This document shows, in pieces, positions 32,993-54,032 of a stretch of DNA of 64,000 bases (the first letter of the stretch is position 1; each line of letters begins with the position of its first letter). A model generated the notes under the pieces. It was not told the origin of the DNA, searched no databases, and was given only the letters and a program-made list of their open reading frames with translations. The stretch spans positions 1 to 64,000 of the IMG/VR virus record IMGVR_UViG_3300037075_000004, one strand, 5' to 3'. The position numbers and the translations under genes are program-made. This DNA is from a virus. Taxonomy: Duplodnaviria > Caudoviricetes.

Positions 32993-33976
32993 TTATCTAC
33001 TTATTAGCTTTCCTTCTCTTTTATTGCGTTTTCTTATACTTTGGACGGCATCCCAATTTTGTCTTATCCATACCTGTGCTACCGATAGATTATGAGAAAA
33101 ATTAAGATGGTTTAGGCATTCTTCCTTTAGCGGGTTGTCAAGCATAGTATGGACAATCCAAAGTTTGTTCCACCAATGCCAATCTTCCCTTATCGACCGA
33201 ACTTTAGATATATTGTCAATATTTATTCTCTGGAAAACATGGCCAACCTTGATATTGGGATACATCATACATTTCCCCCCGTAAACTCTCGCCTTGAGAC
33301 TCAGCATTGCCTCCAGGTGCCCCCACATCCTGAATCCCCGGAACTGCTCTCCCGCTACCGTGTCAAATCCGTGCATTCTCTCATAAAATTCCCTTGTGGT
33401 GAAGTAGAATGCACCATAGACAGCATCAATCTCATAAGGTTCATCTGATTTCTTATTAGCCCACCGACAGCCTATAATTTCTCTATAATTAGGGTCTTTT
33501 CTTAGTTCTGAATTCTTTGGCAGGTCGTCAACTGTCATCGTCCATGTGATAGTTGCCCCGTATCTATGATATAATCCCTCTTGTGCGATGTCATAATTGC
33601 CCGGTTGGAGCCCTACGGAGCAAGCACACCCCATTTCATTCGATTTAAGGGCATTTTTAAGCGATTTAAGCCACTTTCCCCTCTCGGGGTATATATCAGC
33701 CCCACTTATGACGATAATGTCTCCTGACGCATCTTTCACGCATCGGTCAATGCCATATCCCACACCCCATCTTTTATCGGAATTTAGGATAATTGTGTTA
33801 TGCCAAGGGATTTGTTCGTCTATGATGTACTTTGGCGAGCCGTCATCATTCATGCTTCCGTCATTCCATATCACGATCTGCAAATCGGAGTGTTTCTGTC
33901 CGTAGGTAAGATTTTCTATGACATTCCAAAGACTTTTGTCATCTTCGTTGAGGCAAGGGATACAGACGGAAATCAT
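32993..33976 (-). CDS. GT2-family (GT-A) glycosyltransferase
   Basis: MISVCIPCLNE...IVIWNDGS...GVG...ASGDIIVISGAD; late WGHLE...LS.KA...GG.C......VGH.F. Confidence 0.85.
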   Translation of the reverse strand: MISVCIPCLNEDDKSLWNVIENLTYGQKHSDLQIVIWNDGSMNDDGSPKYIIDEQIPWHNTIILNSDKRWGVGYGIDRCVKDASGDIIVISGADIYPERGKWLKSLKNALKSNEMGCACSVGLQPGNYDIAQEGLYHRYGATITWTMTVDDLPKNSELRKDPNYREIIGCRWANKKSDEPYEIDAVYGAFYFTTREFYERMHGFDTVAGEQFRGFRMWGHLEAMLSLKARVYGGKCMMYPNIKVGHVFQRINIDNISKVRSIREDWHWWNKLWIVHTMLDNPLKEECLNHLNFSHNLSVAQVWIRQNWDAVQSIRKRNKREGKLISR

Positions 33977-35710: not shown

Positions 35711-35877
35711 TGGATATATGCTATCGCACTAGTGTTGATAATGATATCTCCCCCTTCTTCATTACCTGAGTATATCCATTTAAGGTTTTCCTGTGCAGAG
35801 ACGGCCTCCTTAATCTGCTCGAATAAGTCATCGGAAATTTTAATTTCCTGTTTGTTTTTTAATACTATCTTTTTCAT
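35707..35877 (-). CDS. Hypothetical 56 aa protein (below the ORF-track cutoff)
   Basis: MKKIVLKNKQEIKISDDLFEQIK...AIAYIQ*; ATGA overlaps at both ends. Confidence 0.55.
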   Translation of the reverse strand: MKKIVLKNKQEIKISDDLFEQIKEAVSAQENLKWIYSGNEEGGDIIINTSAIAYIQ

Positions 35878-36560
35878 AATGTGTCAAGTATTTGTTTTTC
35901 CTCATCTGATAATATGTCATAGAACTTTTGCGGGTCTTCCGCATCCTTTATCTTGCTCATCCAGAGCGTGATTTTGTTTAGTGACTCAAAATTTTTGACA
36001 TCCACTACCATGCCATCCGCAATAGTCCTTGTTTTTATATAAGGCAGCATATTTTTTAGGCAGTCCCCATCCATTGCCCAACTGCGGTCTTTCGTCCATA
36101 GCTTACCAACCTTTTCGATAATCCTCCGGTTGATACATCTTCCTACGCCCAATGGTTGAGTAGTTACAAACTTCCGCAGGTTCCCCCTGAACTTACCATC
36201 CCCGCCATAGAACCAAACTTCTGTTAGACATACAAGGTCTACCCCAAACTCCATCTTTGCTATCATGTTACGCATGAGTGCCGTGCTAAAGATATCATCA
36301 CTTCCGCTCACCACCACATAATCTACTCCCTGTCCCATAAGATAGTCTACTCCTGTATTCCATTTGCGGGATGCCGGATGGTTATCTTGGGTGATATGGT
36401 GACAATGATAGGATTCCACGAGGTCTTTGTGTTCTGCATCCCCTACCACAACAACGGGTATGAATATTTCTAATTGCTCTCGCAGGCGCTTAATAGAAGC
36501 CAACCAAAGCCTAAGAATCTGTGTTCTACGGTAACTGATGGTGACGATCCCGAAGGTCAT
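35874..36560 (-). CDS. GT-A-fold glycosyltransferase-like protein
   Basis: FGIVTISYRR...VVVGD...KWNTG...YVVVSGSDDIF...GVGRCI. Confidence 0.7.
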   Translation of the reverse strand: MTFGIVTISYRRTQILRLWLASIKRLREQLEIFIPVVVVGDAEHKDLVESYHCHHITQDNHPASRKWNTGVDYLMGQGVDYVVVSGSDDIFSTALMRNMIAKMEFGVDLVCLTEVWFYGGDGKFRGNLRKFVTTQPLGVGRCINRRIIEKVGKLWTKDRSWAMDGDCLKNMLPYIKTRTIADGMVVDVKNFESLNKITLWMSKIKDAEDPQKFYDILSDEEKQILDTL

Positions 36561-36561: not shown

Positions 36562-36801
36562 TTATTTAATTCGTACTGCCGAAGTTATTTTATCATAATT
36601 CCCCTTTACTGTTACATATAAAATACTGTCGCCCTGCACCACAATATAACGCCATGATTCATCTGGAAGGGGGAACACCTTTGCGTTGGGAAATTTCTCG
36701 CAAACCGTTTGCATACATTTAGAATTATCCATATCATTACATGCCATTAAAAACATAAATGATGCAACCGACAAGAGTACTAAGAAAATTTTAGTTTTCA
36801 T
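36562..36801 (-). CDS. Small lipoprotein
   Basis: MKTKIFLVLLSVASFMFLMA-C lipobox-like signal. Confidence 0.6.
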   Translation of the reverse strand: MKTKIFLVLLSVASFMFLMACNDMDNSKCMQTVCEKFPNAKVFPLPDESWRYIVVQGDSILYVTVKGNYDKITSAVRIK

Positions 36802-38792: not shown

Positions 38793-39482
38793 TTATTTTA
38801 TATAAGTTCTCATCACTTCTATGTGCTTAGAATAATCTCTTGTAGATTTCCATATGGTCTCTCCTTTGGGCGGGATGTACTGTACATACTGTCCTGCGTT
38901 ATGTTTTAAGACTACCATTGGCACGCCCTGGTCACTTGCCGTCTTGCTCAGATACACATCAGCCATGTTCTTGGAATGGAAATCACTAAGTGTGATATCC
39001 AATCTGTCAGTATGGAAACAGCAACATCCGCTTCCTATAAGGTTCACAGGGACGTCCTCGCTGACAGTATTAAGACATCGGTATGCCCCCGCCCATCTGC
39101 GGAAGTCCGTCACGGGAGGAAGATAGGTGCGACCATGTAGACTCACCAACCCGTTATACCTGTCGACCCCGCTAATGAGATAATCTATTGTACCTGGTAA
39201 GCATATCAAGTCATCATCCCATCCTATATAATAACCATCCTCGACTTTTCCTACCATGGCGAACTTCTGAGCATCGCCCTGCTTATTGTCCGTTGACCAC
39301 CAAAAAATATTAGAGTATTTATCTAAGAACTTTTGGGCGGTTACTTCACCATAGTTTAATGACACAAATATTTGATCTGCCTGCCCCACTAGAGAATCGA
39401 GTACTCTCTCCAAACTTTCGCTTCTTGACGATATGGTTGCTATGCCAACGGTTCTCATCTTTTTAGGTAATAATCGTACCAA
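38793..39482 (-). CDS. GT-A-fold glycosyltransferase
   Basis: VGIATISSR..SL..VLDSL..QAD...GDAQKF...YYIGWDDDLI...IGSGC. Confidence 0.75.
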   Translation of the reverse strand: MVRLLPKKMRTVGIATISSRSESLERVLDSLVGQADQIFVSLNYGEVTAQKFLDKYSNIFWWSTDNKQGDAQKFAMVGKVEDGYYIGWDDDLICLPGTIDYLISGVDRYNGLVSLHGRTYLPPVTDFRRWAGAYRCLNTVSEDVPVNLIGSGCCCFHTDRLDITLSDFHSKNMADVYLSKTASDQGVPMVVLKHNAGQYVQYIPPKGETIWKSTRDYSKHIEVMRTYIK

Positions 39483-40429
39483 TATTGGATCATCTCTTCC
39501 ATTGTCTGCTCAAACGTAAATTCGGGAGACCACCCCAAGATAACTCTTGCGCGCGAAGAGTCTCCCCTGAGATAAGGTAGCTCTTCAGGACGCAGAAAGA
39601 TGGGGTTTTGAACTACATAATCTTTGTAATCTAACCCTAAGCAACTAAATACATAGTCACACATTTCTCGCACGGAATGCGTCTCCCCTGTTGCTATCAC
39701 AAAATCATCTGCCCTAACATGATTGAGTATAGCGTACATGGCCCGCACATAGTCCTTAGAGTTGCCGATGTCCCGATACGAATCCATATTACCTAGTTCG
39801 AGTTTAGTCTTTAGCCCAAGTTTTATTTCTACGGCAGTCTTAACAATTTTCTGGCATACAAAATTAGACCCCCTGCGGAACCCGGAATGATTGAACAATA
39901 TCCCCACACAGGCAAACAATCCGTACGCACGCCTGTAATGTCTCACGAGATTTATGGATGCTACTTTAGAGATACCGTAGGGGCTAGTCGGAACGAATGG
40001 GGTAGTCTCTCTCTGATATTTGTCGTCATCTACTGACAATCCGAAGCACTCACTCGACCCGGCAAAGTAGAGGTGGGCATCGGGGGCATACTTACGATAC
40101 GCCTCAAGTACATTCAATGTCCCCACAAAATTGGTCTGCATGACAAAGGTAGGCATGGAGAAGGAGATTTTTACGTGACTCATGGCTGCGAGGTGGAATA
40201 TGTAATCAGGTTTAACTAATTCCATTACCTCGTTCACTGATATTGGGTCTGTCACATCTCCATAGTGGGTATGAATATTGTCTTTGACGGCATCGAGCCG
40301 ATAGGCTTGGTTCTCTGCCACCGAATGCCTCCTGACAATCCCATGTACCTCGTGCCCTAACGAGAGCATATAGTCAGTCAGGTTAGCCCCATCCATCCCA
40401 GATATGCCCGTTATCAGTATTTTAGCCAT
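39455..40429 (-). CDS. gmd: GDP-mannose 4,6-dehydratase (Gmd family)
   Basis: Start moved to ATG 40429 (MAKILITGISGMDG); HYGDVTD, HLAAMSHV.ISF, AGSSECFG, SPYGISK, GILFNH, LGNMDSYRD.G, LRPEE...LRGD. Confidence 0.95.
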   Translation of the reverse strand: MAKILITGISGMDGANLTDYMLSLGHEVHGIVRRHSVAENQAYRLDAVKDNIHTHYGDVTDPISVNEVMELVKPDYIFHLAAMSHVKISFSMPTFVMQTNFVGTLNVLEAYRKYAPDAHLYFAGSSECFGLSVDDDKYQRETTPFVPTSPYGISKVASINLVRHYRRAYGLFACVGILFNHSGFRRGSNFVCQKIVKTAVEIKLGLKTKLELGNMDSYRDIGNSKDYVRAMYAILNHVRADDFVIATGETHSVREMCDYVFSCLGLDYKDYVVQNPIFLRPEELPYLRGDSSRARVILGWSPEFTFEQTMEEMIQYWYDYYLKR

Positions 40430-40661
40430 TAACCACCTCCCTTGTTGATGGGTCTGCACCAAAATGTCTGCGGTAGACAGTACTCCCATCTCTTTCGTAA
40501 ATCCATTCGTCACTTTGGACGAGATTCCTAGTCAGGGATTCCACCCATTTATCTCTCATATGCTTCATACCTTTTATAAATCCGTCTATCTCTGGCCCGG
40601 TTTCCTGCATCGTGCCGGTATAGACTTCGTTTTCAATTTCTTGATCTGTCGGTGGTCTCAT
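40422..40661 (-). CDS. Hypothetical protein
   Basis: 79 aa overlapping both neighbours in the operon. Confidence 0.5.
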   Translation of the reverse strand: MRPPTDQEIENEVYTGTMQETGPEIDGFIKGMKHMRDKWVESLTRNLVQSDEWIYERDGSTVYRRHFGADPSTREVVNG

Positions 40662-41269
40662 AATATATGTTTAAAAACTGTCATCTTAGTTAAGTCTGGC
40701 CAATCTGTTATTACCCATTTCTTTGGCGGGGTTTCGATGGCCTCCGGTAATTTCCACAGACCCTTCTCTGCGGTCTCCGGGGGTAGATAATAGTGGTATC
40801 CGATAGAGTCGATGTTTTGCTCTCTCCACGGCACACCCGGCAATCTCCCATCATATGACATCTTCTTTAATTTTAGCCACGCATCCTCATCATCAAATAA
40901 GATCATCCCTCCCCGCCCGAGACTGAGATGCTTCTGAAACTGGAAGCTAACAGACATGAATGTACCGGAAATATAACTATTCTTTCTCCATAATACGGCA
41001 GCATCCGCCACCTTGTCCGTCAGAAAATAATAATCCTGCCAATCGTTATCCTCCCATATTAATCTGATATTCATCTTATAGGCAAGGAAGGGGATAGATA
41101 GGTATGTTCTATAGGGGACATATATCTCTTTTGCCCCAGTATATCTTAGTGATAGTTCTATCCCGTGCGTACATGAGTCCACCGCCACGGCATATGGCGC
41201 CCCAAAGAACTCAGCAATCTTCTCCTCAAAGAGTCTTACACTATTGTAATCTACCTTTCTTAGTTCCAT
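40658..41269 (-). CDS. Short DegT/DnrJ/EryC1/StrS-type PLP sugar aminotransferase
   Basis: FEEKIAEFFGAPYAVAVDSCTHGI, DAA, SFQFQKHLSLGRGG (PLP lysine); only 203 aa. Confidence 0.8.
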   Translation of the reverse strand: MELRKVDYNSVRLFEEKIAEFFGAPYAVAVDSCTHGIELSLRYTGAKEIYVPYRTYLSIPFLAYKMNIRLIWEDNDWQDYYFLTDKVADAAVLWRKNSYISGTFMSVSFQFQKHLSLGRGGMILFDDEDAWLKLKKMSYDGRLPGVPWREQNIDSIGYHYYLPPETAEKGLWKLPEAIETPPKKWVITDWPDLTKMTVFKHIL

Positions 41270-42027
41270 TATAGTCTGTGTACTTTAGTTATTGTATCTG
41301 AGAATATTATCGCAGCATTGGCGAGGTTGCTCACCCTGCACAAGAACTGACATCCCTTACCGAGTAGTAGCATCTCGACAAACGCTTCCTCCCAAAGTAG
41401 GGGATTGGTAAAGTTCTTGACATGCATAGAATCGTCCTTAAACACCTCCTTCTTCTCCCTGAACCTGCAATCGTAGTATACCACATTACCGAAAACCTTT
41501 CCTATTCTGTCTATCGACTCCATGTTGTCCGATGCCACAAATATTCTGTCGATATCTTCAGTTTGTAGTATCTCGCCTATCTTGGCAATGTAATCATCGG
41601 TACCGAACACCCCAAACTCAGGATGGTATAGGTTCATATCGGCAGTCCTCACATGCACAGAAAGGGTCTTTGATGTCATGTTCTCGCTATAGAACTTATC
41701 AACCTTATCGGTTATGTAACTTTTAACCTTTACCAGCCTCCTCACATCCTGCATCTTGGGGAATAGTGGAGATTTCTCTATCGGCCCCAAGCCTATGGTG
41801 TCTACCTTGCTATACGTTCCCGGGTTGTAGCAATGGAAGTCTACGAAACTATCATCCTTCCACTGATCGAATATCCAATCGAAAGGATTACCCTTTATGT
41901 TATCGTTCTGTGAAGTGTAATAAACGCCCTCCACCGCCTCGTTTTGATTGACAGCGTGGGGTAACATGAGCATAAACTGGCAATAGATACCCTTAAAGCC
42001 TCTCGGTAGTATCAAATTAATCTTCAT
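41269..42027 (-). CDS. NodZ/O-fucosyltransferase-like GT-B protein
   Basis: LSVHVRTAD, IFVASDN, EMLLLGKGCQFL.RVSN. Confidence 0.7.
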   Translation of the reverse strand: MKINLILPRGFKGIYCQFMLMLPHAVNQNEAVEGVYYTSQNDNIKGNPFDWIFDQWKDDSFVDFHCYNPGTYSKVDTIGLGPIEKSPLFPKMQDVRRLVKVKSYITDKVDKFYSENMTSKTLSVHVRTADMNLYHPEFGVFGTDDYIAKIGEILQTEDIDRIFVASDNMESIDRIGKVFGNVVYYDCRFREKKEVFKDDSMHVKNFTNPLLWEEAFVEMLLLGKGCQFLCRVSNLANAAIIFSDTITKVHRL

Positions 42028-42541
42028 ATCCTAGTTCTTTAGCGAGTTCCATTATTTTAGTCCCGTCAATCTTCTTGACCAACTTGGCGGGGTTGCCTTT
42101 GTAAATCCCCCATTCCTCAGTATCTCCTATGAGCAGACTGCCCGCCGATAACAGCACGCCTTTTCTCAGTCTTGTCCCTGGTAGTACGATAGCGTTTGTC
42201 CCGATATTGGAGAACATCTCCATGATGACGGGTTTGATGATCTGCTTCCCCTTGAGGTGTGCCGGGATCATGGCACCAAACAGGCCACTATCATCGAACC
42301 TGTCGGAACCACATATTATTCGTGCTCCCGCCATGATATTATTGAACCCGAGAGCCTGAAAGAATCCCTCATCCCCGCCAATGCAAGTAACATAAGGCGA
42401 TATATGAACATAATTACCGATATTGAATGCCGTTGTACAGTAGAATCCCCTGTCTATTGAACAGTGATTGCCCACTCTTGCAAGTTCGGGATGCTTAAAG
42501 TACACATCCACATCTATCCGTACATCGCTACCGCTTACCAT
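42017..42541 (-). CDS. Hexapeptide-repeat (left-handed beta-helix) acetyltransferase
   Basis: IGNYVHI, IGTNAIVLPGT, WGIYKGNPAKLVK. Confidence 0.85.
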   Translation of the reverse strand: MVSGSDVRIDVDVYFKHPELARVGNHCSIDRGFYCTTAFNIGNYVHISPYVTCIGGDEGFFQALGFNNIMAGARIICGSDRFDDSGLFGAMIPAHLKGKQIIKPVIMEMFSNIGTNAIVLPGTRLRKGVLLSAGSLLIGDTEEWGIYKGNPAKLVKKIDGTKIMELAKELGYED

Positions 42542-42543
42542 CG

Positions 42544-43344
42544 TTATTTATTTTCTGCTAGTATCTCTGTTATCTTGGCCTTTAGCGTATCCCCGTAGGG
42601 GGTGAACTTGGATGCCCGGGCAAAGTTATCCTCTATAGCATCTATTCTCTTGGCATAATCATCTTCTGTAAGTCCGTTACATACCGCTATCATCTCATCT
42701 ACATTACGGCATTCATATATGCCGTCCATATTGAAGAAATCTCCAATATTGGGAGTGCCGTAATGTATCGGTATCGTCTTCGACATGAAACAATCAACAA
42801 TCTTCTCCGTGAAACAGTTTCTTATGCAGACATTCTCTATGGCGATATGAAACTGAGAATCGAATAATGGTTCCTTACTACTCCCGAGGATCGGGTTATT
42901 GCTATAGTCGGCACCCTGATATCTCTTGTGGGAACTAAGATAAAATGCCTTAGGGATGGATATCTCTCCCCGTCTTGCCCATAGTTCATGCCTCTTGGCA
43001 TATCCCGGGAATCCCCTGTCGGCTTTCCCTCCTACGACTGTCGACACGCCAAAGGTATGCGTTCTCTGTTTGTTAGGATCAATCCATGTACTGAGCCCCA
43101 TATAATATCTTGCCTTGGGGTTATTATCAAGTATCTCCTGATGGTAGGTCAGCACATAGTCATAAAACTCAGTATGCCCCATCACCTCGCCATTTAACTT
43201 CATGTTGGGTTCCTGTAATATGATTATGCGGATAGTCCCTTCTGGCGGGAAGTCCCGCTTAAAATGATCCACCAGTATCTCGATCTGTTTGTCGGTATCG
43301 AGATCAATCATTAGATTCCAGTTTGCCCTTACCGTTATGCTCAT
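42544..43344 (-). CDS. GT10 fucosyltransferase-like protein
   Basis: FHIAIENVCIRNCFTEKIVDCFMSKTIPIHYG.PNI..FFN. Confidence 0.75.
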   Translation of the reverse strand: MSITVRANWNLMIDLDTDKQIEILVDHFKRDFPPEGTIRIIILQEPNMKLNGEVMGHTEFYDYVLTYHQEILDNNPKARYYMGLSTWIDPNKQRTHTFGVSTVVGGKADRGFPGYAKRHELWARRGEISIPKAFYLSSHKRYQGADYSNNPILGSSKEPLFDSQFHIAIENVCIRNCFTEKIVDCFMSKTIPIHYGTPNIGDFFNMDGIYECRNVDEMIAVCNGLTEDDYAKRIDAIEDNFARASKFTPYGDTLKAKITEILAENK

Positions 43345-43757
43345 TCAATAAATGTTTTATCGTTTTCCTGCCCGAGATAGGGGCCGGTTTTAAATTCGAG
43401 GATTTTGCTCGGATCGCTAAGCACCTTATAGGTGTGACCGCCATAGAGAGTAAATGATGTATCCCCCTCATAAAGTATTGGTTCGGCTATGATAGTATCA
43501 TCCAGATCATAAAGAATACACTTAACTCGTCCCTTAATGACGTGCCATGCTTCCTGTGCGATCTTATCGGCATAACTGACTTCATGTTCTATGTGCTTAT
43601 GGGGTCGGAATGTCTTACCGGCATTATGACTCATGGCGGCACATTGCAGAAACCCGTTAACGGGTAATATGTCGATCCTCCCATCTTGGAAATCGTATAG
43701 TCTCCATACCACATGAAGGAGTAATCCTTCTTCCACTTTAGAATATATCTTCTCCAT
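43341..43757 (-). CDS. Cupin-fold sugar isomerase/epimerase-like protein
   Basis: FLQ.AAM.H..GKTFRPHKH...QEAW.VIKG.V...YD...GGHTY...EFKTGPY.G.ENDK.FI. Confidence 0.7.
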   Translation of the reverse strand: MEKIYSKVEEGLLLHVVWRLYDFQDGRIDILPVNGFLQCAAMSHNAGKTFRPHKHIEHEVSYADKIAQEAWHVIKGRVKCILYDLDDTIIAEPILYEGDTSFTLYGGHTYKVLSDPSKILEFKTGPYLGQENDKTFIE

Positions 43758-44341
43758 TATTTTAAGTGTGCTACTAATATGTCATTGGGTACATCGTGAT
43801 CTTCGTAAGAAAGTGTGTAGTTGGGATTTATCTTCAGCAGGGCGTCAATTATATCCTGCGAATAGAACCCGTAAAAGTTCTTACATGGGTACAGTTCGCA
43901 TCTGCAAACGGGTTTGCCATCTAAAGGCTTGCTCCAACATCTCATATCATCTATCATTATCGTATGGGTATTAAGAGAATGTTTTTCTATCTGCATCAGT
44001 TCTATCATTAGCGGGGTGCAATATTTCCCGATAGCCGTATCACCCTTTGAGTAATGCCCATCAAGCCAGAATGTTATAGGTTCGCGAATATCCCTGATTA
44101 CATATTTGAGCATCTTGCTTGAATCACCCTGATAAATCTTAACCTTCTTATTATCCCTGAATCGCTCCCGCGCCAAAGCACAATACTTCTCCGATAGTTC
44201 GATAGACATAACATTCTCAAATCCTGCATCCAGTGCAAGTTGCACCGAATCCCCGATATAGGTACCTGTTTCTACGAAGTACTTATTTGGGTACTTGGCG
44301 AAAACATTCTCTTTTAATTTTTTATAGGTTACCTCCATCAT
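43757..44341 (-). CDS. SAM-dependent methyltransferase-like protein
   Basis: Start moved to ATG 44341 (ATGA overlap); FVETGTYIGD, SIELS, GDS, FWLDGH, IMIDD. Confidence 0.7.
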   Translation of the reverse strand: MMEVTYKKLKENVFAKYPNKYFVETGTYIGDSVQLALDAGFENVMSIELSEKYCALARERFRDNKKVKIYQGDSSKMLKYVIRDIREPITFWLDGHYSKGDTAIGKYCTPLMIELMQIEKHSLNTHTIMIDDMRCWSKPLDGKPVCRCELYPCKNFYGFYSQDIIDALLKINPNYTLSYEDHDVPNDILVAHLK

Positions 44342-44946
44342 TTCTTTAATTCGTGGCATTCCCATACCCAATCGTAGCAATAGACTTCATCATGTGTCTC
44401 AGACAGCCATTTGCGGATAATATTACGCTTAATCTCCGCGTTTTTAACCCAAGGATGAAACTGCATCTGAAGTCTCTTTATTTTAGTTATTTTATCATTT
44501 ATTAAAAGTCTAAATAATATATCATATTCCATCCCTTCTATGTTGATGTTGGCTAAATCAATTTTATCATAATCATCTATTTCATCATTTATATCAAGCA
44601 AAATCACTCCCTCTGTTTCGGTGGATTGGTATGCGTATCTTCGGGATGAATCTTCGTTAGAAGCGAAGGGCGCCCCTTCTTCGATGTGGTCACTAAGACC
44701 ATAATTATGACAATATAATTTAATATTACATAACGCTCTATTCTTCAAAATATCGTAATTTTTAGTCATGGGTTCATAAACATCCACCCAACACCCATAT
44801 TTCTGATTAATAGCAATCGCCCAATCACCATGATATCCCCCAACCTCCCAAACATAAGAATCATTATTTAGCGGATGATCGAGCAATAATGTATTATCAC
44901 CATCATCGGCACGCCATCTTTCAAGTTCCTTGCTATTATCTATCAT
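44338..44946 (-). CDS. FkbM-family methyltransferase
   Basis: VWEVGGYHG, VYEP, NINIEGMEYDIL, LQMQFH; visibly more AT-rich than neighbours. Confidence 0.8.
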   Translation of the reverse strand: MIDNSKELERWRADDGDNTLLLDHPLNNDSYVWEVGGYHGDWAIAINQKYGCWVDVYEPMTKNYDILKNRALCNIKLYCHNYGLSDHIEEGAPFASNEDSSRRYAYQSTETEGVILLDINDEIDDYDKIDLANINIEGMEYDILFRLLINDKITKIKRLQMQFHPWVKNAEIKRNIIRKWLSETHDEVYCYDWVWECHELKK

Positions 44947-45554
44947 ATCTTGCGTAAAAAGTCGTAATCAACATAAAATTTGAACACATCACTTATCCCT
45001 GCCCTCTGAAATGCCAAATTTGGGCTAAAACAGAAGGAATTAGACACTTTCTGTAGCCCAGCAAGGATTATGTCGTCTTGAGGCTCAAGTGGCTCTAATG
45101 CCTTTAAAACAGCGTTAAACACGGTATTTCTCAAGGCGAAGGCATGGGTAGCGTAAGTATTGGTTATTTTTATCACATGATCTGATATCTTTGGCGGGTT
45201 TTCGCCATTGTGGTTGCCTCCGATCCATAGCATATCCCAGTTTTCGGGGACTTCCTTGCTCCACTCGGCAAACTTATTGTTAAAATCCTCCGCAAACTCC
45301 ACGTCATCCTCCAATATCAGCACGCTATCGTAATTTCTCTCTACCGCCAGCTTAACTATCCCGATCTTGCTAAGACAGTTACCGACACTCCCCCTCGGAA
45401 CCTTATAATTGAATGGTTCTATGAGATTGCCGTCCACAGCGGGGAATCTCTCGACATCGAGTCCCCACTTGGCGAACTCTTTCTGTGACAGTTCCCACTT
45501 ATCGAGGCACCCGTCAAGGTTCACACAGAAAATATGACTAAAAAACTCATTCAT
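44943..45554 (-). CDS. GT25-family glycosyltransferase
   Basis: Start moved to ATG 45554 (MNEFFSHIFCVNLD); ERFPAVDG, VLILEDDV, P.NWDMLWIG, THAFA. Confidence 0.85.
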   Translation of the reverse strand: MNEFFSHIFCVNLDGCLDKWELSQKEFAKWGLDVERFPAVDGNLIEPFNYKVPRGSVGNCLSKIGIVKLAVERNYDSVLILEDDVEFAEDFNNKFAEWSKEVPENWDMLWIGGNHNGENPPKISDHVIKITNTYATHAFALRNTVFNAVLKALEPLEPQDDIILAGLQKVSNSFCFSPNLAFQRAGISDVFKFYVDYDFLRKI

Positions 45555-46197
45555 CCTTCGTAAGTAATATACCATCAAGAATATACCATTGCGGATGTGA
45601 CAATTTCCACCCGGCAAACACCTCCTTCACCATTTCCTCCCAGTTTTCATGGCACCCGGGGTTCTCTATGAGAAAAACATACTCATTGGATGCTTTTTTC
45701 ATGTTAGCGAGTGCATTGATAGCATTCTCGGTGCTCAGGTGCATAACCACGGCCTGCGAGAACACAAAATCGAAAGTCCTGTCGGGTATTTCCTTCGTTA
45801 TATCCATCACTTTCACGTTCTGATAGATATTATCTGGCAAGCTCATGTACCACTTCCCTATGTCTATCTGACTCTGCGATATGTCGATGCCATACAATTC
45901 GGCCTTGGGTACTATTAATGGCAGGTTAGCAAGCTGATAGCACATCCCACAACCCACCTCAAGGATACTTTGGGGTTGTAACAGATATAATAGAGCATAA
46001 AGTTCCCTAGAATTATTGTGGATATTACAACCCGCCCTAAAGGAAAGATCATCTCCCTTAATCAGATCATCGGGATTGACAAAAAAATCAAATGACTTAT
46101 CCCGTAATACTTCTACTACTTGCCGGAGATAACTATCTCCCGTATATGTAACCCAATTCCAATCGTCTTTTTCTTTCATACCTTTATCCAGTGCCAC
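45547..46197 (-). CDS. Class I SAM-dependent methyltransferase
   Basis: ILEVGCG, YGIDIS, FDFVFSQAVVMH, VFLIE. Confidence 0.85.
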   Translation of the reverse strand: MALDKGMKEKDDWNWVTYTGDSYLRQVVEVLRDKSFDFFVNPDDLIKGDDLSFRAGCNIHNNSRELYALLYLLQPQSILEVGCGMCYQLANLPLIVPKAELYGIDISQSQIDIGKWYMSLPDNIYQNVKVMDITKEIPDRTFDFVFSQAVVMHLSTENAINALANMKKASNEYVFLIENPGCHENWEEMVKEVFAGWKLSHPQWYILDGILLTKDE

Positions 46198-46970
46198 GGC
46201 ACTATGTCTTTTGCTCTATTATTATCATCTCCAAACCATCTCTCGGGTGCAATCGTCCTTTTATCGACGTTCTGTCCGATCCAGGCCGCCCACCATGAGA
46301 ATGAACTATTTGCAATTATATGATGAGTACACCTCGACTGTAAGAAAAGGCAAATATAATCAGTATCTTCGACAAATACAAACTTTTCCCCAATAAAATT
46401 TTCTCTGCACCAGGTCATGTCGTCACTTACCACGATATACCGTTCAATACCATAGGGTCGCAGGTACTCCATTGCCCGGTTATAGTAATCCATGTCACAT
46501 GGCGGGTGTATATGGGCCAGTTGGACATAATTGCCCCTGCGTACATGAATGGAACAGGTTGTACCCTTAAGTAAATCATCGTATTTTGAGAGTCTGGCGC
46601 TGATATCGTCCGATGGTTCCAACGATTTTAGTACAAAATCCCGGTAGTGTGCAAAATAACTCTCACTCTGGAAATATCCCACATATCTCGTATCGTCCTC
46701 GGCAATTATCCTCCTATATTCAAAAGGTACTCTTACTATTCTCTTTGGCGGGACTGCCCAATCCTGATTTTTTCTCAAGTCCAAATTCTTAAATATAGTG
46801 AGATATTCTCTTGCGTGCGTAGTCCATGCCGTCTGCCTACTCAACATCTCGATAAAATTATCAATGTCGGCATAATAAACATCCGTGCCTATTTCCTGCG
46901 CCATGACCTCTATGGTTGCAATCTGGAACATTTGATTCCCAATCCCGCCCATGAGTTCGATACTAAGCAT
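46176..46970 (-). CDS. GT11 alpha-1,2-fucosyltransferase-like protein
   Basis: GGIGNQMFQ, GYFQSESYF, SIHVRRGNY, SDDMTWC, HIIANSSFSWWAAW, P.RWF. Confidence 0.9.
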   Translation of the reverse strand: MLSIELMGGIGNQMFQIATIEVMAQEIGTDVYYADIDNFIEMLSRQTAWTTHAREYLTIFKNLDLRKNQDWAVPPKRIVRVPFEYRRIIAEDDTRYVGYFQSESYFAHYRDFVLKSLEPSDDISARLSKYDDLLKGTTCSIHVRRGNYVQLAHIHPPCDMDYYNRAMEYLRPYGIERYIVVSDDMTWCRENFIGEKFVFVEDTDYICLFLQSRCTHHIIANSSFSWWAAWIGQNVDKRTIAPERWFGDDNNRAKDIVPWHWIKV

Positions 46971-47838
46971 ACCTACTGATGAGTTGAAATTTATATTCTA
47001 TGACACTTGTCTTGCTCTCCACGGGAAGTGCCTCAAATTCTTTCGCTATCCTCACCATATCTAGGAGATGAGGATTGGTGTTAACCGTTGACGGGTGACA
47101 TAGATGAAATACTTCAACAACAGGATCGTCACACATCCCCACTTTCGTATACAACGATATTTTGTGCCAGAAGAACCTATCCTCTGGCGAGTATCCGACA
47201 AATAACTCCGGGTCATATCCCCCCACCGCAAAGAACAGTCGTCTTGATAATGTGATCGACCCTCCGGGGGCTTCGCCCTTAACGGTATATATTCCCTTGC
47301 TGTTTATATTTAGGTTATCGACATCCACCTTGCCCGATATTAAGTCCGGTGTGAGGCGGTGATCGCAATACAGCACCCGCCTTGCATTGAACGACTGTAC
47401 TGCCGATGTCTCTTTTTTTTCTATATTATCTAATACTCCGTGGTAGAAATTCTTTTGAACAAGGCAATCGAGGTCATGGCATATTATCCACTTGCTCTTG
47501 GGAGTTACAAAAACCCCGATATTGAACGCCAGACACTTGTTGAAAGCCCCCTCATCCTGTATCCACACATAGTTAATCCCGTGCATGAGGCAGGTATTAT
47601 AATGCCTCGCAACATTATCGTGCTCTACAACAGTCAGTTGGATGAGTAAACCCTTATCATCTGCACTCTTTAGTGAACAAAGTAGTGGTGAGAGAAAGTC
47701 CATCCTACCCCGTACCGGTACCACCACATTAATGTCGTAATACAGATCATCGTTGTATAAGATATGAATGCTGGCATTCTTTAGCACACTATCGTAGTCT
47801 ACTGCGTTATCCTTGATCTTTTGGAGTAGTTTATTCAT
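46963..47838 (-). CDS. GT2/GT7-like glycosyltransferase
   Basis: VVVPVRGR, FNKCLAFNIG, HDLD, GGYDPELFVGYSPED, HLCH. Confidence 0.85.
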   Translation of the reverse strand: MNKLLQKIKDNAVDYDSVLKNASIHILYNDDLYYDINVVVPVRGRMDFLSPLLCSLKSADDKGLLIQLTVVEHDNVARHYNTCLMHGINYVWIQDEGAFNKCLAFNIGVFVTPKSKWIICHDLDCLVQKNFYHGVLDNIEKKETSAVQSFNARRVLYCDHRLTPDLISGKVDVDNLNINSKGIYTVKGEAPGGSITLSRRLFFAVGGYDPELFVGYSPEDRFFWHKISLYTKVGMCDDPVVEVFHLCHPSTVNTNPHLLDMVRIAKEFEALPVESKTSVIEYKFQLISRYA

Positions 47839-48356
47839 TTCTTCAGTTCTTTAACTACATAATGGAGTATCATGGAATGAATGCTCTCCACGGTTTCCAT
47901 ATCGTCAAGCGGAACATGGACATTAATATCGCATAGGTTCTTCAGTGTTCCCCCGTCAAAACCCGTAAGAGCCACAACCCTCAGTCCAAACTTTCTACAT
48001 TTACTTGCCAGACTAAGAACATTGGCACTCTTGCCTGATCCGCTGAGAACCACCGCCAATGTCTTTTCCGTCACCCCCATCCTATCCGCTATATTTGTCA
48101 GTGCGCTACCGTAACTATCATCATTGGAATATGCAGTCAGTAGTCCCGTGTTATCAGTAAGACATATAGCTTTTATATGGCATCCTTTCATAAGGTCTTG
48201 TGCAAAATGAGATGCCGTAGCTGATGACCCTCCATTCCCCGCAACAATTACATGGTCACTATCCCTTATTGCCTTGATAAACCCGTAAACCGATTCTGCA
48301 TCTATTTGTTTTAACACAGCACCAAAATATCCGCTATAGTCCTGAAAATTCATCAT
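47835..48356 (-). CDS. gmhA: Sedoheptulose-7-phosphate isomerase (SIS fold)
   Basis: AGNGGSSATASHFAQD, LTAYSND, LSGSGKSANV, ALTGFDGG.L, VESIH...H. Start is probably ATG 48356 or 48353. Confidence 0.9.
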   Translation of the reverse strand: MMNFQDYSGYFGAVLKQIDAESVYGFIKAIRDSDHVIVAGNGGSSATASHFAQDLMKGCHIKAICLTDNTGLLTAYSNDDSYGSALTNIADRMGVTEKTLAVVLSGSGKSANVLSLASKCRKFGLRVVALTGFDGGTLKNLCDINVHVPLDDMETVESIHSMILHYVVKELKK

Positions 48357-49014
48357 TTGCAAGTTTTAAGTCTTCTAATGTCCCAATGTCTCTTAGATAA
48401 TCACTTATGAGATATACTCCCATATTGCCTATGTACATGGGTAATAGGTCATATGCTATATCTTTGCCGGGGATGCTGTCAAGCACACCCCGCTCCATGA
48501 CATACACTCCCGCATTGACATAATCAGACCTGGGTTCCTTGGGTTTCTCCTGAAAATCCACCACGGTTATCCCGTTATGTACGACAATACCCCTACCCAT
48601 CACATCATCCATCTGTTTTGCCGACATTGTTATTGGGTAGGTATGTCCTCTGTGCCACCATAAAAGATCGGTCAGATCAAGGTTGGTTAATACATCCGCA
48701 TAGGCTACAAAAAAATCCTCCCCGTTTTTAATAAACGACCTATTCTCCCGTAGTGTTCCTGCCGAACCAAGCAGAGATTCCTCATACACGATCTTGAACT
48801 GACATTTTCTCCAATGGGTAGCGAGATATCTTTCTACCTGGTCGGCATGATGATGGACATTCACGAGGACTTCCGTTACGCCATGTTTTTCAAATAGTTT
48901 ACCCCACCAATAGAGAAGGGGTCTGCCTTGCACCGTGGCAAGACATTTGGGTATTGTATCAGTCAGGGGTGCCAATCTCGTCCCGAGACCTGCCGCCAAG
49001 AGAAATGCTTTCAT
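48334..49014 (-). CDS. hddC: Sugar-1-phosphate nucleotidyltransferase (HddC / mannose-1-P guanylyltransferase family)
   Basis: AFLLAAGLGTRLAPLTDTIPKCL, LGSAG, YAD, F.EKP, VNAGVY, DIGT; next to gmhA and the GHMP kinase. Confidence 0.75.
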   Translation of the reverse strand: MKAFLLAAGLGTRLAPLTDTIPKCLATVQGRPLLYWWGKLFEKHGVTEVLVNVHHHADQVERYLATHWRKCQFKIVYEESLLGSAGTLRENRSFIKNGEDFFVAYADVLTNLDLTDLLWWHRGHTYPITMSAKQMDDVMGRGIVVHNGITVVDFQEKPKEPRSDYVNAGVYVMERGVLDSIPGKDIAYDLLPMYIGNMGVYLISDYLRDIGTLEDLKLANDEFSGL

Positions 49015-49973
49015 TGGATATTAAATATTATTCTTGCTCCAAATGGATCAATAGAGAATGGTAGTTCTCGGTAATTTTTCATTGCCTCCTTAAATCGGTA
49101 TTGCTCTTGTGGGGGCACATATGACAATAGGAATCCACCACCACCAGCACCACATATCTTACATCCCGTAGCACCGCCCGTGTATGCAATATCAATTATC
49201 CGATCTATCTCACCATTACTTATTCCCGTTGCGAGGGTTTGTTTAAGCACCCAACTCGAATGAATAATTTCACCAACCTTATCATAATCCATGGCGAGTA
49301 TCGCATCATGGGCGTCTCGGGCATAGTCGGCCAATTTCCCAAGAATACTTATATTTTTGTTTGTATCCCTATCTTGCTCCTCTAATATTTTGTTCCCGTC
49401 CCTCGTGATACCAGTAAAGTGCAAAAACAAATTATCCGCTATATCATAGTGTTTAGCGGGAATAGGCAACGACAACACGCCAGAACTATTAAAATAAATA
49501 TTCATAAAGCCGCCTATCGCACAAGTATATTGATCCTGCCTTCCTATTGGTTTATCCAAGGTATCTATCTCTATCATACAGGCATCTTCGGCAAGTTCCT
49601 TTGGTGTCACATAAATCCCTTGATAGGCGAACATGGCCTGCAAGAGACCTATCGTGATGGCTGATGACGAACCGAGTCCGGTGCCCGCGGATGGGATATC
49701 AGCAAGTGTCGAAATCTCGACTCCCTTTTTTATCTCGGCATACTCCATACACGCCCTGATAATCTCATGCTTTATTTCGCTAACATCACTAACAATCTCG
49801 TGTTGGGTATAGTTAAGAACAACCAGATCATCGTATCGTTCCCTGATGATGACATAGACATATTTGTTGATGGCGAAGGATACCACATATCCGTCATACT
49901 CTCGTGAATAGGCATCAAAGTCCGAGCCTCCTCCGGCCAGACTTATTCTTAAAGGAACTTTTATTACTATCAA
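49011..49973 (-). CDS. hddA: D-glycero-D-manno-heptose-7-phosphate kinase (GHMP family)
   Basis: PLRISLAGGGSD, IPSAGTGLGSSSA, PIGRQDQY..A.GG, KICGAGGGGF. Confidence 0.9.
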   Translation of the reverse strand: MIVIKVPLRISLAGGGSDFDAYSREYDGYVVSFAINKYVYVIIRERYDDLVVLNYTQHEIVSDVSEIKHEIIRACMEYAEIKKGVEISTLADIPSAGTGLGSSSAITIGLLQAMFAYQGIYVTPKELAEDACMIEIDTLDKPIGRQDQYTCAIGGFMNIYFNSSGVLSLPIPAKHYDIADNLFLHFTGITRDGNKILEEQDRDTNKNISILGKLADYARDAHDAILAMDYDKVGEIIHSSWVLKQTLATGISNGEIDRIIDIAYTGGATGCKICGAGGGGFLLSYVPPQEQYRFKEAMKNYRELPFSIDPFGARIIFNIQ

Positions 49974-50881
49974 TATCTTGGATTTTTACGCCATTTATAG
50001 GCAGATGAAATAATGTCTGATAGGCTTTTGCGGGGTTGCCACCCAATAAGTTGTCTGGCATAATATGCGTTAGACACAAGCCATTCCATATCTCCATCCC
50101 TCCGCGGTTCGTGTGTCCTCGGTACTGCCAACCCCGTCTGATGCTCCACCTCCCTTATAATATCTAATACCGAATAACCACGCCCCATGCCAAGTTCTAT
50201 GGTATCATTACTTTTTTTATCAAATGGCAATACCGATATAATGGCATCGGTTATATCTTCCACATGAATATAATCTCTTATTGCTGTACCGTCCCCGGTG
50301 TCATAATCCATCCCGTAGATAATTAATTTATCTTTCTTCCCCATCGCCACGTCCAATACGGTCGGGATGAGGTGTGTCTCGTGCTCCCGAGATTCGCCAT
50401 GCTTCTCCGTGGCACCCGCAACGCAGTAGAATCGGAAGATATAGTATTGGATGCCGTATGCCCGGGCAAAGTCCCTAATCATATCTTCACATGCTCTTTT
50501 TGAGTTACCGTAGGGCGTATTGCTATCTATTGCCGCTGTTGATGCGAAAATGATTTTTTTAACCCCGCCATCTACCATCGCAGTCAAGAGGTGAAATGTA
50601 CTTACAACATTATTATCATAATACTCTTGCGGGTCTTTAATAGACTCCGGCACATTGGCTGAGGCCGCAAGATGAATCACGGTGTCTATGTCATAAGATT
50701 CAAAGAGGAACCGTGCGTCATCAACAACACACTCCTCGAATATTGCCCGCTCGTCTACCGCTTCCGCATGGCCGTCTCTCAAATCATCTATTACAACAAC
50801 TTGATGTCCGGCATCGCAGAGTTTTTCAACTGCCACGCTGCCTATATATCCCGCTCCTCCAGTAACCGCTATCATACGCAA
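49970..50881 (-). CDS. galE: UDP-glucose 4-epimerase-like extended SDR
   Basis: VTGGAGYIGS, HLAA...V.ES...P..YY.NN, YGNSK, HLIP, DGTAIRDYIHVED, RRDGD. Confidence 0.85.
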   Translation of the reverse strand: MRMIAVTGGAGYIGSVAVEKLCDAGHQVVVIDDLRDGHAEAVDERAIFEECVVDDARFLFESYDIDTVIHLAASANVPESIKDPQEYYDNNVVSTFHLLTAMVDGGVKKIIFASTAAIDSNTPYGNSKRACEDMIRDFARAYGIQYYIFRFYCVAGATEKHGESREHETHLIPTVLDVAMGKKDKLIIYGMDYDTGDGTAIRDYIHVEDITDAIISVLPFDKKSNDTIELGMGRGYSVLDIIREVEHQTGLAVPRTHEPRRDGDMEWLVSNAYYARQLIGWQPRKSLSDIISSAYKWRKNPRY

Positions 50882-51459
50882 AATCTATTATAATTTGTTA
50901 CTATTGTTGAAACATCCGATCTTCTACAGGTATCACTCTGAAAATCTGCTTGCGTACACACCATCGGATAAGTGCAGAAACAATTAAATTTAGGTTGTAC
51001 CTCGTTCATCAGGAAAACGTCCCATTTCCCAATCCGGTATTCATCATCGGCAGTAAGACAATATTCTAATGCACCGTTTTCTCTGACATTCCAGATCATT
51101 GCGTGAGTTGTTAGTGCTTTAGTAATCTTAAATAGATGAGGGGAATACTGCTCTTGCGGGGCTTGGGGACTGCACCCGAGATACAGGATATCCCAATCCG
51201 AGGGTAGTTCGGTCATCGCCTCCGTTGCCACCGAAATATCCGTAAGAAACTTTATATCATCTTCGAAGATAGCTGATACCTCTTGGTTGGCAAATATTTT
51301 TACGAGACAACTCAGATGTGAATCTCGGCATCCCATCCAACCGATTTTATTGATCTTGGCGGGATAGAGATATGCGTTGAGGTTTTGATTTTCTAATTCC
51401 GTCATCGCATGTTTCCGCCTTTCGGGTCTGTCGGTTCTGTTAATGAGATAAATCTGCAT
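50872..51459 (-). CDS. GT25-family glycosyltransferase, first gene of the operon
   Basis: YLINRTDRPERR, GC..SH, IFEDDI, LP.DWDILYLG, THA. Confidence 0.85.
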   Translation of the reverse strand: MQIYLINRTDRPERRKHAMTELENQNLNAYLYPAKINKIGWMGCRDSHLSCLVKIFANQEVSAIFEDDIKFLTDISVATEAMTELPSDWDILYLGCSPQAPQEQYSPHLFKITKALTTHAMIWNVRENGALEYCLTADDEYRIGKWDVFLMNEVQPKFNCFCTYPMVCTQADFQSDTCRRSDVSTIVTNYNRFCV

Positions 51460-51476: not shown

Positions 51477-51524
51477 CAAATGTAAGAAGTCTTTTTGACT
51501 TTTCCAAATAATTTTGTACTTTTG
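51477..51524. promoter_or_regulatory. Overlapping divergent Bacteroidota-type promoters (glycan operon and groES)
   Basis: Minus: TTTG (51505-51508), 20 nt, TACATTTG (51477-51484). Plus: TTTG (51494-51497), 19 nt, TACTTTTG (51517-51524). Confidence 0.75.
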
Positions 51525-52082: not shown

Positions 52083-52865
52083 TCATAACCCACACAATCC
52101 ATCACATTCCTCTATCATTTCGGGAAATAGACTCGGTGATTGTGAAAAATCAATATCTCTTAGGGGTTTTAGATGTTTAGATAGATACGCCCTCCGCCGC
52201 AATCCGGGATAATCACGGATGATATCATCAAATCCACATGCCTCTTCAAACTCATCGGGAAATTGTTTCTTGAATACCCTCCAATAGTTATCTGAGTGAA
52301 ATGGGCATATAAGACAGGCACTTTTACCGGGTTCCCTCATGCTGGTTGATTTAAACCAATGGACTATCTCATCAATAGTAATTTTATAATCAACAAGTGG
52401 ATAATAGTTATCAATATATTTAACATTGCTCTCCTTCATTCGCTCTCTCTCATCGAGAGATATGCCGATCCAAAGCCTAACCCTCTTTCCTCTTCTTAGT
52501 TCTTGTAATTTTCTACGCAGGGGTGCAATTTTATAGTCTCCTGTACATTGTCGTGGTGTAATACCCCCATCGCCTGCCAGCCGTAGCGGTAGCATTGCTA
52601 CTCTATCCCTTTTGCCATTTATTTTATCTGCCACGTCCTGCATTAAATTGCCGATAGACACAATCTCGATATAAAAATTATATTTATTCCATACATAAGG
52701 GCGCAACCACTCAAGATACTCATAAACATATTTTGGTTCGCATCCCGTATCTGAAAATATCGCAAAATCGGGTTTATATTCAAATTTCCCATCAAGCGCA
52801 TTTAGAAGCATAAAGCTACTTTGTTTCCCCGCACCGAGAGATATTACATTAAGTATGTCACTCAT
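52083..52865 (-). CDS. PAPS-reductase-like / adenine nucleotide alpha-hydrolase protein
   Basis: VISLGAGKQSS (PP-loop-like), IFSDTG.EP, CT..YKI.P, IGISLDE, YPL, KSAC..CPFH, terminal ECDGLCG. Confidence 0.8.
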   Translation of the reverse strand: MSDILNVISLGAGKQSSFMLLNALDGKFEYKPDFAIFSDTGCEPKYVYEYLEWLRPYVWNKYNFYIEIVSIGNLMQDVADKINGKRDRVAMLPLRLAGDGGITPRQCTGDYKIAPLRRKLQELRRGKRVRLWIGISLDERERMKESNVKYIDNYYPLVDYKITIDEIVHWFKSTSMREPGKSACLICPFHSDNYWRVFKKQFPDEFEEACGFDDIIRDYPGLRRRAYLSKHLKPLRDIDFSQSPSLFPEMIEECDGLCGL

Positions 52866-53196: not shown

Positions 53197-53229
53197 ACCT
53201 CAAAGATAAAACTTAGTTCTGACATTTCC

Positions 53230-53262
53230 AAAGAAAAAGGAGACTTTTTTAGGGTCTCCTCC
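53230..53262 (-). terminator. Rho-independent terminator
   Basis: GGAGAC-CCTAAAAAA-GTCTCC-TTTTTCTTT on the minus strand. Confidence 0.65.
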
Positions 53263-53889: not shown

Positions 53890-54032
53890 CCAATCAATTT
53901 TCAGCAAAGATAATATGAGAAAACGAGAAATGCAAATTTTTTAGTGATTATTTTTACTCTAGGCGATTTTTTCTGAACTTTTGTTTGGAAATGTCGAATC
54001 TTTCCCTTACTTTTGCATTCAAATCAGAAAAT

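Follow-up and report, generated by a model that had tools for sequence, protein, structure and literature searches.

A candidate virion-glycosylation island with O-antigen-like architecture in an uncultured phage of Bacteroidota-type bacteria

In the mycobacteriophages Che8, Corndog and Myrna, soluble phage-encoded glycosyltransferases (GTs) act in the cytoplasm of infected cells, where they modify capsid and tail-tube proteins, and the glycans shield the particle (PMC12619734). Here we describe a glycan-building gene island in a 64,000-nucleotide stretch of DNA (the window), bases 1-64000 of the 84,145-bp IMG/VR virus record IMGVR_UViG_3300037075_000004 (CheckV completeness 95%), which belongs to an uncultured tailed phage of Bacteroidota-type bacteria. 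The mycobacteriophage systems consist of a handful of genes in actinobacteriophages, with glycans shown by mass spectrometry; their virion glycosylation operons, as studied by Freeman et al. in 2023, reportedly also involve methyltransferases. The island is like them in its soluble phage-encoded GTs, but it differs in comprising 19 and at least two further genes, three sugar-nucleotide routes, a Bacteroidota-type host and an enzyme resembling the polypeptide N-acetylgalactosamine (GalNAc)-transferases of family GT27, and it is known from its genes alone. In the literature searched, demonstrated phage virion glycosylation was confined to mycobacteriophages, and nothing relevant was found on glycosylated Bacteroidota phages.

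Chlorovirus PBCV-1 and the Mimiviridae use GDP-mannose 4,6-dehydratase (GMD), other nucleotide-sugar enzymes, sets of several GTs and O-methyltransferases to make methylated fucose- or rare-sugar-containing virion glycans independently of the host. Their glycosylation clusters vary between clades, and the PBCV-1 glycans are N-linked at atypical sequons. Unlike the studied phage, these are eukaryotic giant viruses; Mimivirus R699 surfaced in our searches as a generic GT-A match.

Bacterial loci for O-antigen and capsule are like the island in their conserved flanks, hypervariable middle and families GT25, GT11, GT10, GMD, the heptose pathway and FkbM. However, unlike O-antigen loci and the cassettes of serotype-converting prophages (GtrABC, Oac, Wzy), the 84-kb phage genome has no lipid-carrier (initiating phosphoglycosyl) transferase, flippase, polymerase, ABC transporter, GtrA/B or integrase. 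Phage DNA-glycan clusters place hexose, N-acetylhexosamine or heptose oligosaccharides on 5-hydroxymethylcytosine (10.1101/2023.12.21.572611) and need a 5mYOX/TET or ThyS-type enzyme to produce the hydroxylated base (10.1101/2023.12.21.572611; PMC13326640). The island shares with these clusters (Pyle et al.; Lee et al.) a GT-A ancestry like that of lipopolysaccharide (LPS) enzymes, multiple successive GTs and heptose, but the phage encodes neither a 5mYOX/TET nor a ThyS-type enzyme.

New features of the island are its scale, the three nucleotide-sugar routes that the phage carries itself, an O-antigen-like layout shared by a family of Bacteroidota phages, and a GT27-like enzyme restricted to phages. 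We give a probability of roughly one half to the following reading: every phage of the family has its own version of one hypervariable glycan locus, the island being that of the studied phage, and the locus acts in the cytoplasm, needs no lipid carrier and decorates a protein made by the phage, most likely one of the virion.

A variable locus with fixed ends

The island consists of 19 co-directional open reading frames (ORFs) on the minus strand, running from 51459 to 38793, and encodes sugar-nucleotide enzymes, 7-8 GTs, three methyltransferases and one acetyltransferase. Junctions are overlaps of 1-10 nt or gaps of 1-2 nt, with longer overlaps only at listed upstream GTG or TTG starts. An earlier sequence-only reading had described a chain of mostly overlap-coupled genes behind one promoter, which agrees with these junctions and with the promoter match; its count of 17 genes was wrong, as its own list already held 19 names. 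The promoter and the two conserved ends are as follows.

51477..51508, minus strand: Bacteroidota-type promoter (TTTG, 20 nt, TAcaTTTG), 18 nt 5' of the first island gene
50872..51459, minus strand: GT25-like GT, conserved 5' end of the island; PF01755, 33.9 bits; homologues at 41-52% identity in 5/5 relatives
38793..39482, minus strand: KfiA/GT45-like GT-A enzyme of 229 aa, resembling alpha-N-acetylglucosamine (GlcNAc)-transferases, conserved 3' end of the island; homologues in 4/5 relatives

We defined a membrane segment as a 19-residue window with a Kyte-Doolittle value of at least 1.6. None of the 19 island proteins contains one, and no ORF of the 84-kb genome has more than four hydrophobic segments, so that no polytopic membrane protein was seen; the earlier description of a soluble system with no exporter thus extends from the island to all ORFs of the genome. 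Neither a tyrosine (PF00589) nor a serine (PF00239) recombinase was matched in the genome, and lysogenic serotype conversion is therefore unlikely.

By PHROGs matches the phage has a portal (23880-26249), a large terminase (TerL, 27378-29990) and a 1289-aa virion protein, with no further match among its large structural proteins; a candidate major capsid protein is encoded at 20577-22046. Apart from one mismatch, the contig ends in the same 116 nt with which it begins, and the assembly is therefore probably complete. The island had no megablast match in a set of 50,697 phage records. With TerL, tblastn against INPHARED gave 78 matches, all to Cellulophaga (Pachyviridae), Flavobacterium or Maribacter phages or one unclassified phage, at less than 25% identity; the closest among cultured phages, at 23-24%, belong to the Pachyviridae (the Cellulophaga phi46:3 group) or are podophages of Flavobacterium. 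No crAss-like record was among the 78 (no crAss-specific profile was run), which leaves the label of a crAss-like podovirus in the sequence-only reading unsupported.

Through the portal and a conserved GT2 gene we found five related contigs, G001 (85 kb), G005 (86 kb), G007 (82.6 kb, with terminal repeats), G006 (77 kb) and G008 (27 kb), with structural genes 35-73% identical to those of the studied phage. At least eight contigs longer than 25 kb bear homologues. The GT25 gene adjoins the same small divergent gene in all five. The GT45-like gene, a 228-aa GT2 gene and a GroES-like gene each occur in four of the five, and a 327-aa GT27-like gene in every one. G005, G007 and G008 carry a co-directional block of 8-17 genes that begins with GT25 and ends with the GT45-like gene, and its middle shares nothing with that of the studied phage. 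G001 differs in orientation: its glycan block, together with the small genes beside it, runs opposite to the block of GT45-like gene, GT2 gene and terminase (L014:8062-17088); a Dam-type DNA methyltransferase also lies within this glycan block.

The variable genes of the relatives encode methyltransferases, GT2, GT92 and GT32-/GT47-like enzymes, WbqC, ATP-grasp enzymes, thiamine pyrophosphate-dependent E1-like pairs, a sugar C-methyltransferase and GH130-like proteins. Among the six phages, nucleotide-sugar enzymes of the short-chain dehydrogenase/reductase (SDR) type were found in the studied phage only, apart from a sub-threshold Epimerase match in one fragmentary relative. On gene order and content, the locus acts as bacterial O-antigen loci do: its ends are fixed and its content can be swapped. 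The same layout across relatives argues strongly against a chimeric assembly. As a separate observation, the E1-like alpha/beta pairs, WbqC, ATP-grasp enzymes and sugar C-methyltransferase occur together in the cassettes of G005 and G008, which suggests branched or amidated rare sugars, quite unlike those predicted for the studied phage.

A GT27-like enzyme downstream of the island

The glycan system extends beyond 38793-51459, the range considered by the sequence-only reading. Downstream of the island on the same strand follow genes for an AAA ATPase, an endonuclease VII, a GT2 enzyme, a tandem GroES-like protein and a GT2-family enzyme at 32993-33976, and then the terminase; a separate cluster with a fibre, a GT and an FkbM gene lies further away. 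Two of the downstream genes belong to the conserved core.

35874..36560, minus strand: GT2 GT of 228 aa, conserved in the family; PF00535; homologues at 38-57% identity in 4/5 relatives
32993..33976, minus strand: GT27-like (polypeptide GalNAc-transferase-like) GT-A enzyme of 327 aa, in 5/5 relatives; candidate initiating protein O-glycosyltransferase

A structure model of the 327-aa enzyme, built from a 22-sequence alignment, reached a predicted local distance difference test (pLDDT) score of 92.8. In a Foldseek search of the PDB, the top 50 matches were all polypeptide GalNAc-transferases (ppGalNAc-Ts), with E about 1e-15. VIA alignment to representatives gave Z scores of 26.2 and 25.7 with GalNAc-T1 and TgGalNAc-T3, compared with 18.0 for the best other GT-A enzyme, and the catalytic domains superposed with a root-mean-square deviation (rmsd) of 2.8 over 274 residues at 11-18% identity. 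At the sequence level, the profile matched ppGalNAc-T10 across residues 2-256, including the Gal/GalNAc-T motif, whereas other GT2 enzymes matched this profile in the N-terminal nucleotide-binding half only. The phage enzyme has the whole catalytic-domain fold of the animal and Toxoplasma ppGalNAc-Ts and an altered form of their Gal/GalNAc-T motif: WGHLE...NIKVGHVFQR aligns with WGGEN...CSRVGHVFR, and the metal-binding His of GHVF is invariant among the 22 homologues.

In contrast to these GT27 enzymes, the phage protein is a catalytic domain only, with no membrane anchor or hydrophobic segment and no C-terminal ricin-type lectin domain. It also lacks the DxH motif: SGAD aligns to DSH, leaving a metal ligand at the third position only (Asp94). 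Because the anchor, the lectin domain and DxH are absent, we do not file the enzyme in GT27, which is nonetheless its closest relative. As a conserved enzyme closest to the animal polypeptide GalNAc-transferases, it favours direct glycosylation of Ser/Thr on protein. It is possible, and we propose it tentatively, that these ~80-86 kb Bacteroidota podophages carry an O-antigen-like serotype locus for their own particle. This anchorless, phage-restricted relative of mucin-type ppGalNAc-Ts would start O-glycans on a virion protein in the cytoplasm, and a swappable cassette, which in the studied phage includes GDP-heptose, GMD and GalE routes, three fucosyltransferase-type enzymes and three methyltransferases, would set the glycan type of each phage.

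A fold search of BFVD with the model returned generic viral GT-A proteins only, and a literature search for GT27 in phages found nothing relevant. A single-peptide-pattern scan, which has limited sensitivity, of one genome per species across 185,579 species gave a single match, on JBBACM010000072.1. This 5.6-kb contig of a Candidatus Paceibacterota metagenome-assembled genome carries six genes of this phage family, and is probably a mis-binned phage fragment that gives no evidence on the host.

Island genes, predicted pathway and acceptor

The remaining island genes are listed from the promoter onwards. Curated cut-offs were 24 bits for GT25, 262.3 for GalE (TIGR01179), 22.7 for FkbM and 415 for TIGR01472; the GT11, DegT and GDP_Man_Dehyd matches also exceed theirs.

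49970..50881, minus strand: GalE, UDP-glucose/GlcNAc 4-epimerase; TIGR01179, 290.5 bits, above its cut-off
49011..49973, minus strand: GHMP sugar kinase, best match HddA (heptose-7-phosphate kinase), 156.6 bits; GHMP domains above cut-off
48334..49014, minus strand: HddC-like sugar-1-phosphate nucleotidyltransferase; PF00483, E 2e-28; HddC 76.6 bits versus 93 bits for mannose-1-phosphate guanylyltransferase
47835..48362, minus strand: SIS isomerase, best match GmhA; SIS above cut-off; TIGR00441, 89.7 bits, below cut-off
46963..47838, minus strand: 291-aa protein, possible GT-A GT with a DLD motif; no Pfam or NCBIfam match; two PHROGs of unknown function
46176..46970, minus strand: GT11 (alpha1,2-fucosyltransferase family); PF01531, 83.8 bits, E 1.6e-23
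45547..46197, minus strand: class I S-adenosylmethionine (SAM) methyltransferase; profile match above curated cut-off
44943..45617, minus strand: second GT25-like GT; PF01755, 33.7 bits
44338..44946, minus strand: FkbM-family methyltransferase; PF05050, 25 bits
43757..44380, minus strand: probable SAM methyltransferase of 207 aa; no Pfam match; language-model (Atlas) lead to class I/CmcI methyltransferases; 41% identical homologue in G001
43341..43757, minus strand: possible WbuC-like cupin of 138 aa (sugar epimerase or isomerase?); language-model (Atlas) lead only
42544..43344, minus strand: GT10-like (alpha1,3-fucosyltransferase-like) enzyme; H. pylori FucT, PDB 2nzw, E 4.6e-6; PF00852, E 0.0027; 45% identical homologue in G001
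42017..42541, minus strand: left-handed beta-helix sugar N/O-acetyltransferase; NeuD/PglB/VioB subfamily, E 3.5e-11
41269..42027, minus strand: NodZ/POFUT-like GDP-sugar-dependent transferase of 252 aa, a weak call; POFUT2, E 0.11; G001 homologue versus PF05830 NodZ, E 8.3e-5
40658..41269, minus strand: short DegT-like protein of 203 aa; PF01041, 60.9 bits; homologues following the GT25 gene in G005 and G008
40422..40661, minus strand: 79-aa ORF; no match in Pfam or PHROGs searches
39455..40513, minus strand: Gmd, GDP-mannose 4,6-dehydratase; PF16363 (GDP_Man_Dehyd), 329.7 bits; TIGR01472, 294.5 bits, below cut-off; translation probably begins at the ATG of codon 29, about 40429

Many of these genes had been named by the sequence-only reading, with varying success. 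Its GalE-like gene is a true GalE equivalog, and because it passes that cut-off it is not the fucose synthase Fcl. Its HddA, HddC and GmhA hold as families (GHMP kinase, NTP_transferase and SIS, all above cut-off), whereas the specific names stay at the level of best matches below the NCBIfam equivalog cut-offs, and HddC is not even the top match. For its GT2/7 enzyme, the 291-aa protein, a DxD-type motif is present and hhalign to the GT2 profile aligned the nucleotide-binding/DxD region, yet this alignment was not significant, and hhalign against the GT27-like and GT45-like profiles gave nothing significant. Language-model leads point weakly to its 207-aa methyltransferase and its cupin; the latter had no Pfam, PHROG or PDB match, PDB sequence searches with the 291-aa and 138-aa proteins returned only spurious designed-protein matches, and the island ORFs without assignment matched only PHROGs of unknown function. 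The NodZ-like call is similarly weak, drawing on POFUT2 and the G001 homologue.

The gene called GT-A at the 3' end does have this fold and is more exactly KfiA/GT45-like: it matched residues 302-523 of PmHS2 at E 7e-35 and KfiA at E 5e-23, its model (pLDDT 94) superposed on the KfiA/PmHS2-type fold with a TM-score of 0.88 and an rmsd of 2.2, and its family has invariant R...DDD...ED residues, including D89-D91. The aminotransferase is indeed of the DegT family, but in an atypical half-size form that keeps the SF..K lysine and the DAA motif without the C-terminal domain. We rejected the idea of a truncated pseudogene, as a populous family shares the same length (~205 aa). These half-size relatives (mostly ~200-215 aa; 858 cluster representatives at E<=1e-3 and at least 422 at E<=1e-10, one member being fused to a GNAT acetyltransferase) apparently form a large, uncharacterised family. 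For Gmd, the best PDB matches are genuine GMDs (274 bits), compared with 132 bits for the Campylobacter GDP-heptose dehydratase 7us5, which disfavours a heptose 4,6-dehydratase.

From these assignments a pathway can be sketched. GalE would supply UDP-Gal and UDP-GalNAc. The adjacent isomerase, kinase and nucleotidyltransferase genes (47835-49973), as GmhA, HddA and HddC, would supply GDP-D-glycero-D-manno-heptose with a borrowed phosphatase, proposed because GmhB is absent from the phage. Gmd would yield GDP-4-keto-6-deoxymannose. Host Fcl could reduce this product to GDP-fucose, or else the short DegT-like protein could aminate it and the beta-helix acetyltransferase acetylate it, possibly once the cupin has acted. 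The GT27-like enzyme would then transfer the first sugar to an acceptor Ser/Thr; elongation of the chain would fall to the GT45-like and GT2 enzymes, both GT25s, the 291-aa protein and three transferases of GDP-sugar type (GT11, GT10-like and NodZ-like); and the three methyltransferases and the acetyltransferase would complete the glycan. The predicted sugars are heptose, 6-deoxyhexose or 4-acetamido-4,6-dideoxyhexose, and O-methyl sugars.

We favour a protein acceptor because of the GT27-like enzyme, the absence of membrane machinery and recombinase, the retention of the core GTs in phages that have diverged from one another, and the location upstream of the genes for packaging. The earlier proposal of a lipid-carrier-independent glycan on the phage's own virion gains from this enzyme, from the locus architecture and from the absence of integrase, membrane and TET-type genes. 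The argument from missing transmembrane segments, however, discriminates less than had been assumed, because soluble GTs are normal in host LPS and capsule pathways.

Several points weigh against virion-protein decoration. The GT25, GT11, GT10 and GT2 enzymes of LPS/O-antigen pathways use lipid-linked acceptors and are soluble as well; solubility therefore does not decide the question. The pathways are incomplete: the genome has no GmhB (TIGR00213) at E<=1 and no Fcl/GMER or RMD-type reductase, its two SDR genes being Gmd and GalE. For the GT27-like enzyme, which has no DxH and no lectin domain, activity on a peptide acceptor is an extrapolation, and the timing of expression is inferred from promoter motifs alone. 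A search for mucin- or collagen-like acceptors found no Gly-X-Y run or Ser/Thr-rich window in the relatives, and neither occurred among the conserved virion proteins of the studied phage outside the C-terminal 40 residues of the 1289-aa protein. The studied phage does encode one plausible acceptor candidate past the window, a Thr-rich, collagen-like tail-fibre protein with ~260 residues of proline-free Gly-Ser-Gln-Gly-Thr-Thr (GSQGTT) repeats; as the relatives lack such repeats, a family-wide acceptor must be another protein.

We consider it rather unlikely that the island remodels the host envelope. In that case phage enzymes at the inner membrane face would act on lipid-linked intermediates of the host (the LPS core, the O-unit, the capsule or the general O-glycan of Bacteroidota) and use the host initiating transferase, flippase and ligase, and the altered surface would block superinfection or the sticking of progeny to debris. 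The GT25, GT11, GT10-like and NodZ-like enzymes and the GDP-heptose and GMD pathways are typical of LPS/O-antigen clusters, such GTs are normally soluble or peripheral, the conserved ends and variable middle mirror O-antigen loci, and pathways without GmhB and Fcl lean on host metabolism. However, the genome has no membrane component of any kind and, with no integrase or recombinase found, no lysogen to protect. Moreover, the core GTs are 34-57% identical across phages whose structural genes have diverged to ~50%, which a phage-borne acceptor explains more easily than differing host glycans do, and the GT family nearest to the conserved enzyme is one that acts on proteins.

Attachment of the glycan to a modified base of the genome to evade restriction, an alternative named by the sequence-only reading, is improbable. 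DNA glycosylation, with heptose among the sugars used, is described for phage GT-A enzymes akin to the GTs of LPS and teichoic acid, and the clusters can adjoin structural genes (10.1101/2023.12.21.572611). The R...DDD...ED residues of the GT45-like protein recall the motif described for DNA GT-A enzymes, but this protein is a strong homologue of polysaccharide GlcNAc-transferases; a C5-cytosine DNA methyltransferase is encoded upstream of the island (56798-57931), but it has one weak match among the five relatives. Even at E<=1, no TET/JBP dioxygenase or thymidylate-synthase homologue was found in this genome or the five relatives (PF12851 for this genome and five relatives, PF00303 for this genome), and therefore no known hydroxylated base is available as acceptor. 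In addition, three fucosyltransferase-type GTs and three methyltransferases far exceed any described DNA glycan. A PAPS-reductase-like protein is also encoded upstream of the island (52083-52865; phrog_424, E 1.5e-38) and has no homologue in the five relatives; together with the C5-cytosine methyltransferase it points to some non-glycosylation DNA modification.

That host DNA was mis-joined to the phage contig, a chimera which the earlier reading had itself raised, is scarcely credible, as the island ends and both flanks have same-order homologues in four independent related phage contigs, the GC content of the 19 island genes (0.36-0.47) is like that of the remaining genome, the island opens at an extended-type promoter like other phage promoters, and the contig has its terminal repeat.

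If virion-protein decoration is true, complex methylated, heptose- or deoxy-sugar-containing coats would also occur on phages of Gram-negative Bacteroidota and would differ between close relatives like bacterial serotypes. Such variation would in turn imply that the phage surface is under selection, with grazers, host defences, immune recognition and adsorption to debris as possible causes, and viruses would possess a soluble counterpart of a mucin-type initiating enzyme. The island stands out by its size and its GT27-like enzyme; if it decorates the particle, its GTs and sugar-nucleotide enzymes, all soluble and closely grouped, would also be of use to enzymology, the half-size DegT-like family among them.

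Promoters and neighbouring genes

The promoter pattern TTTG-N18-22-TAnnTTTG occurs at 14 sites in the window, compared with 1.4 expected (none of 100 shuffles reached 14), mostly directly 5' of genes, and this promoter type also precedes capsid-side genes. On the minus strand between the island promoter and 27364, the only further match lies inside the GT11 gene (46351-46382). Island and terminase are on the same strand and, with no intervening promoter match outside the GT11 gene, the island may be co-transcribed with the genes down to the terminase. Five promoter-like sites (20493-20523, 27333-27364, 51477-51508 and 53201-53232, all on the minus strand, and 53984-54015 on the plus strand) have an extended box, TTTGGAAA(A/T)GTC, before TAnnTTTG, one of them reading TTTGAAATGTC. 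This box may mark a phage-specific promoter class common to the glycan island and the capsid-side genes.

Between the core GTs lies the 267-aa tandem GroES-like gene (34446-35249), upstream of the terminase and kept across the phage family. We rejected it as a glycosylation gene and regard it as a backbone gene, since a GroES-like gene likewise precedes TerL in Cellulophaga phage phi46:3. Between the endonuclease VII and GT2 genes, a 79-aa ORF (36562-36801) has a lipoprotein-type signal (...FLMAC) and is the only membrane-directed product near the glycosylation genes. The separate cluster past the window (71254-76665 of the genome) encodes the tail-fibre-like protein (71254-73137), then a small GT-like protein whose gene has a Bacteroidota-type promoter 14 nt on its 5' side, a 570-aa protein with an FkbM domain and no Pfam match for its N-terminal part, and finally a TPR protein.

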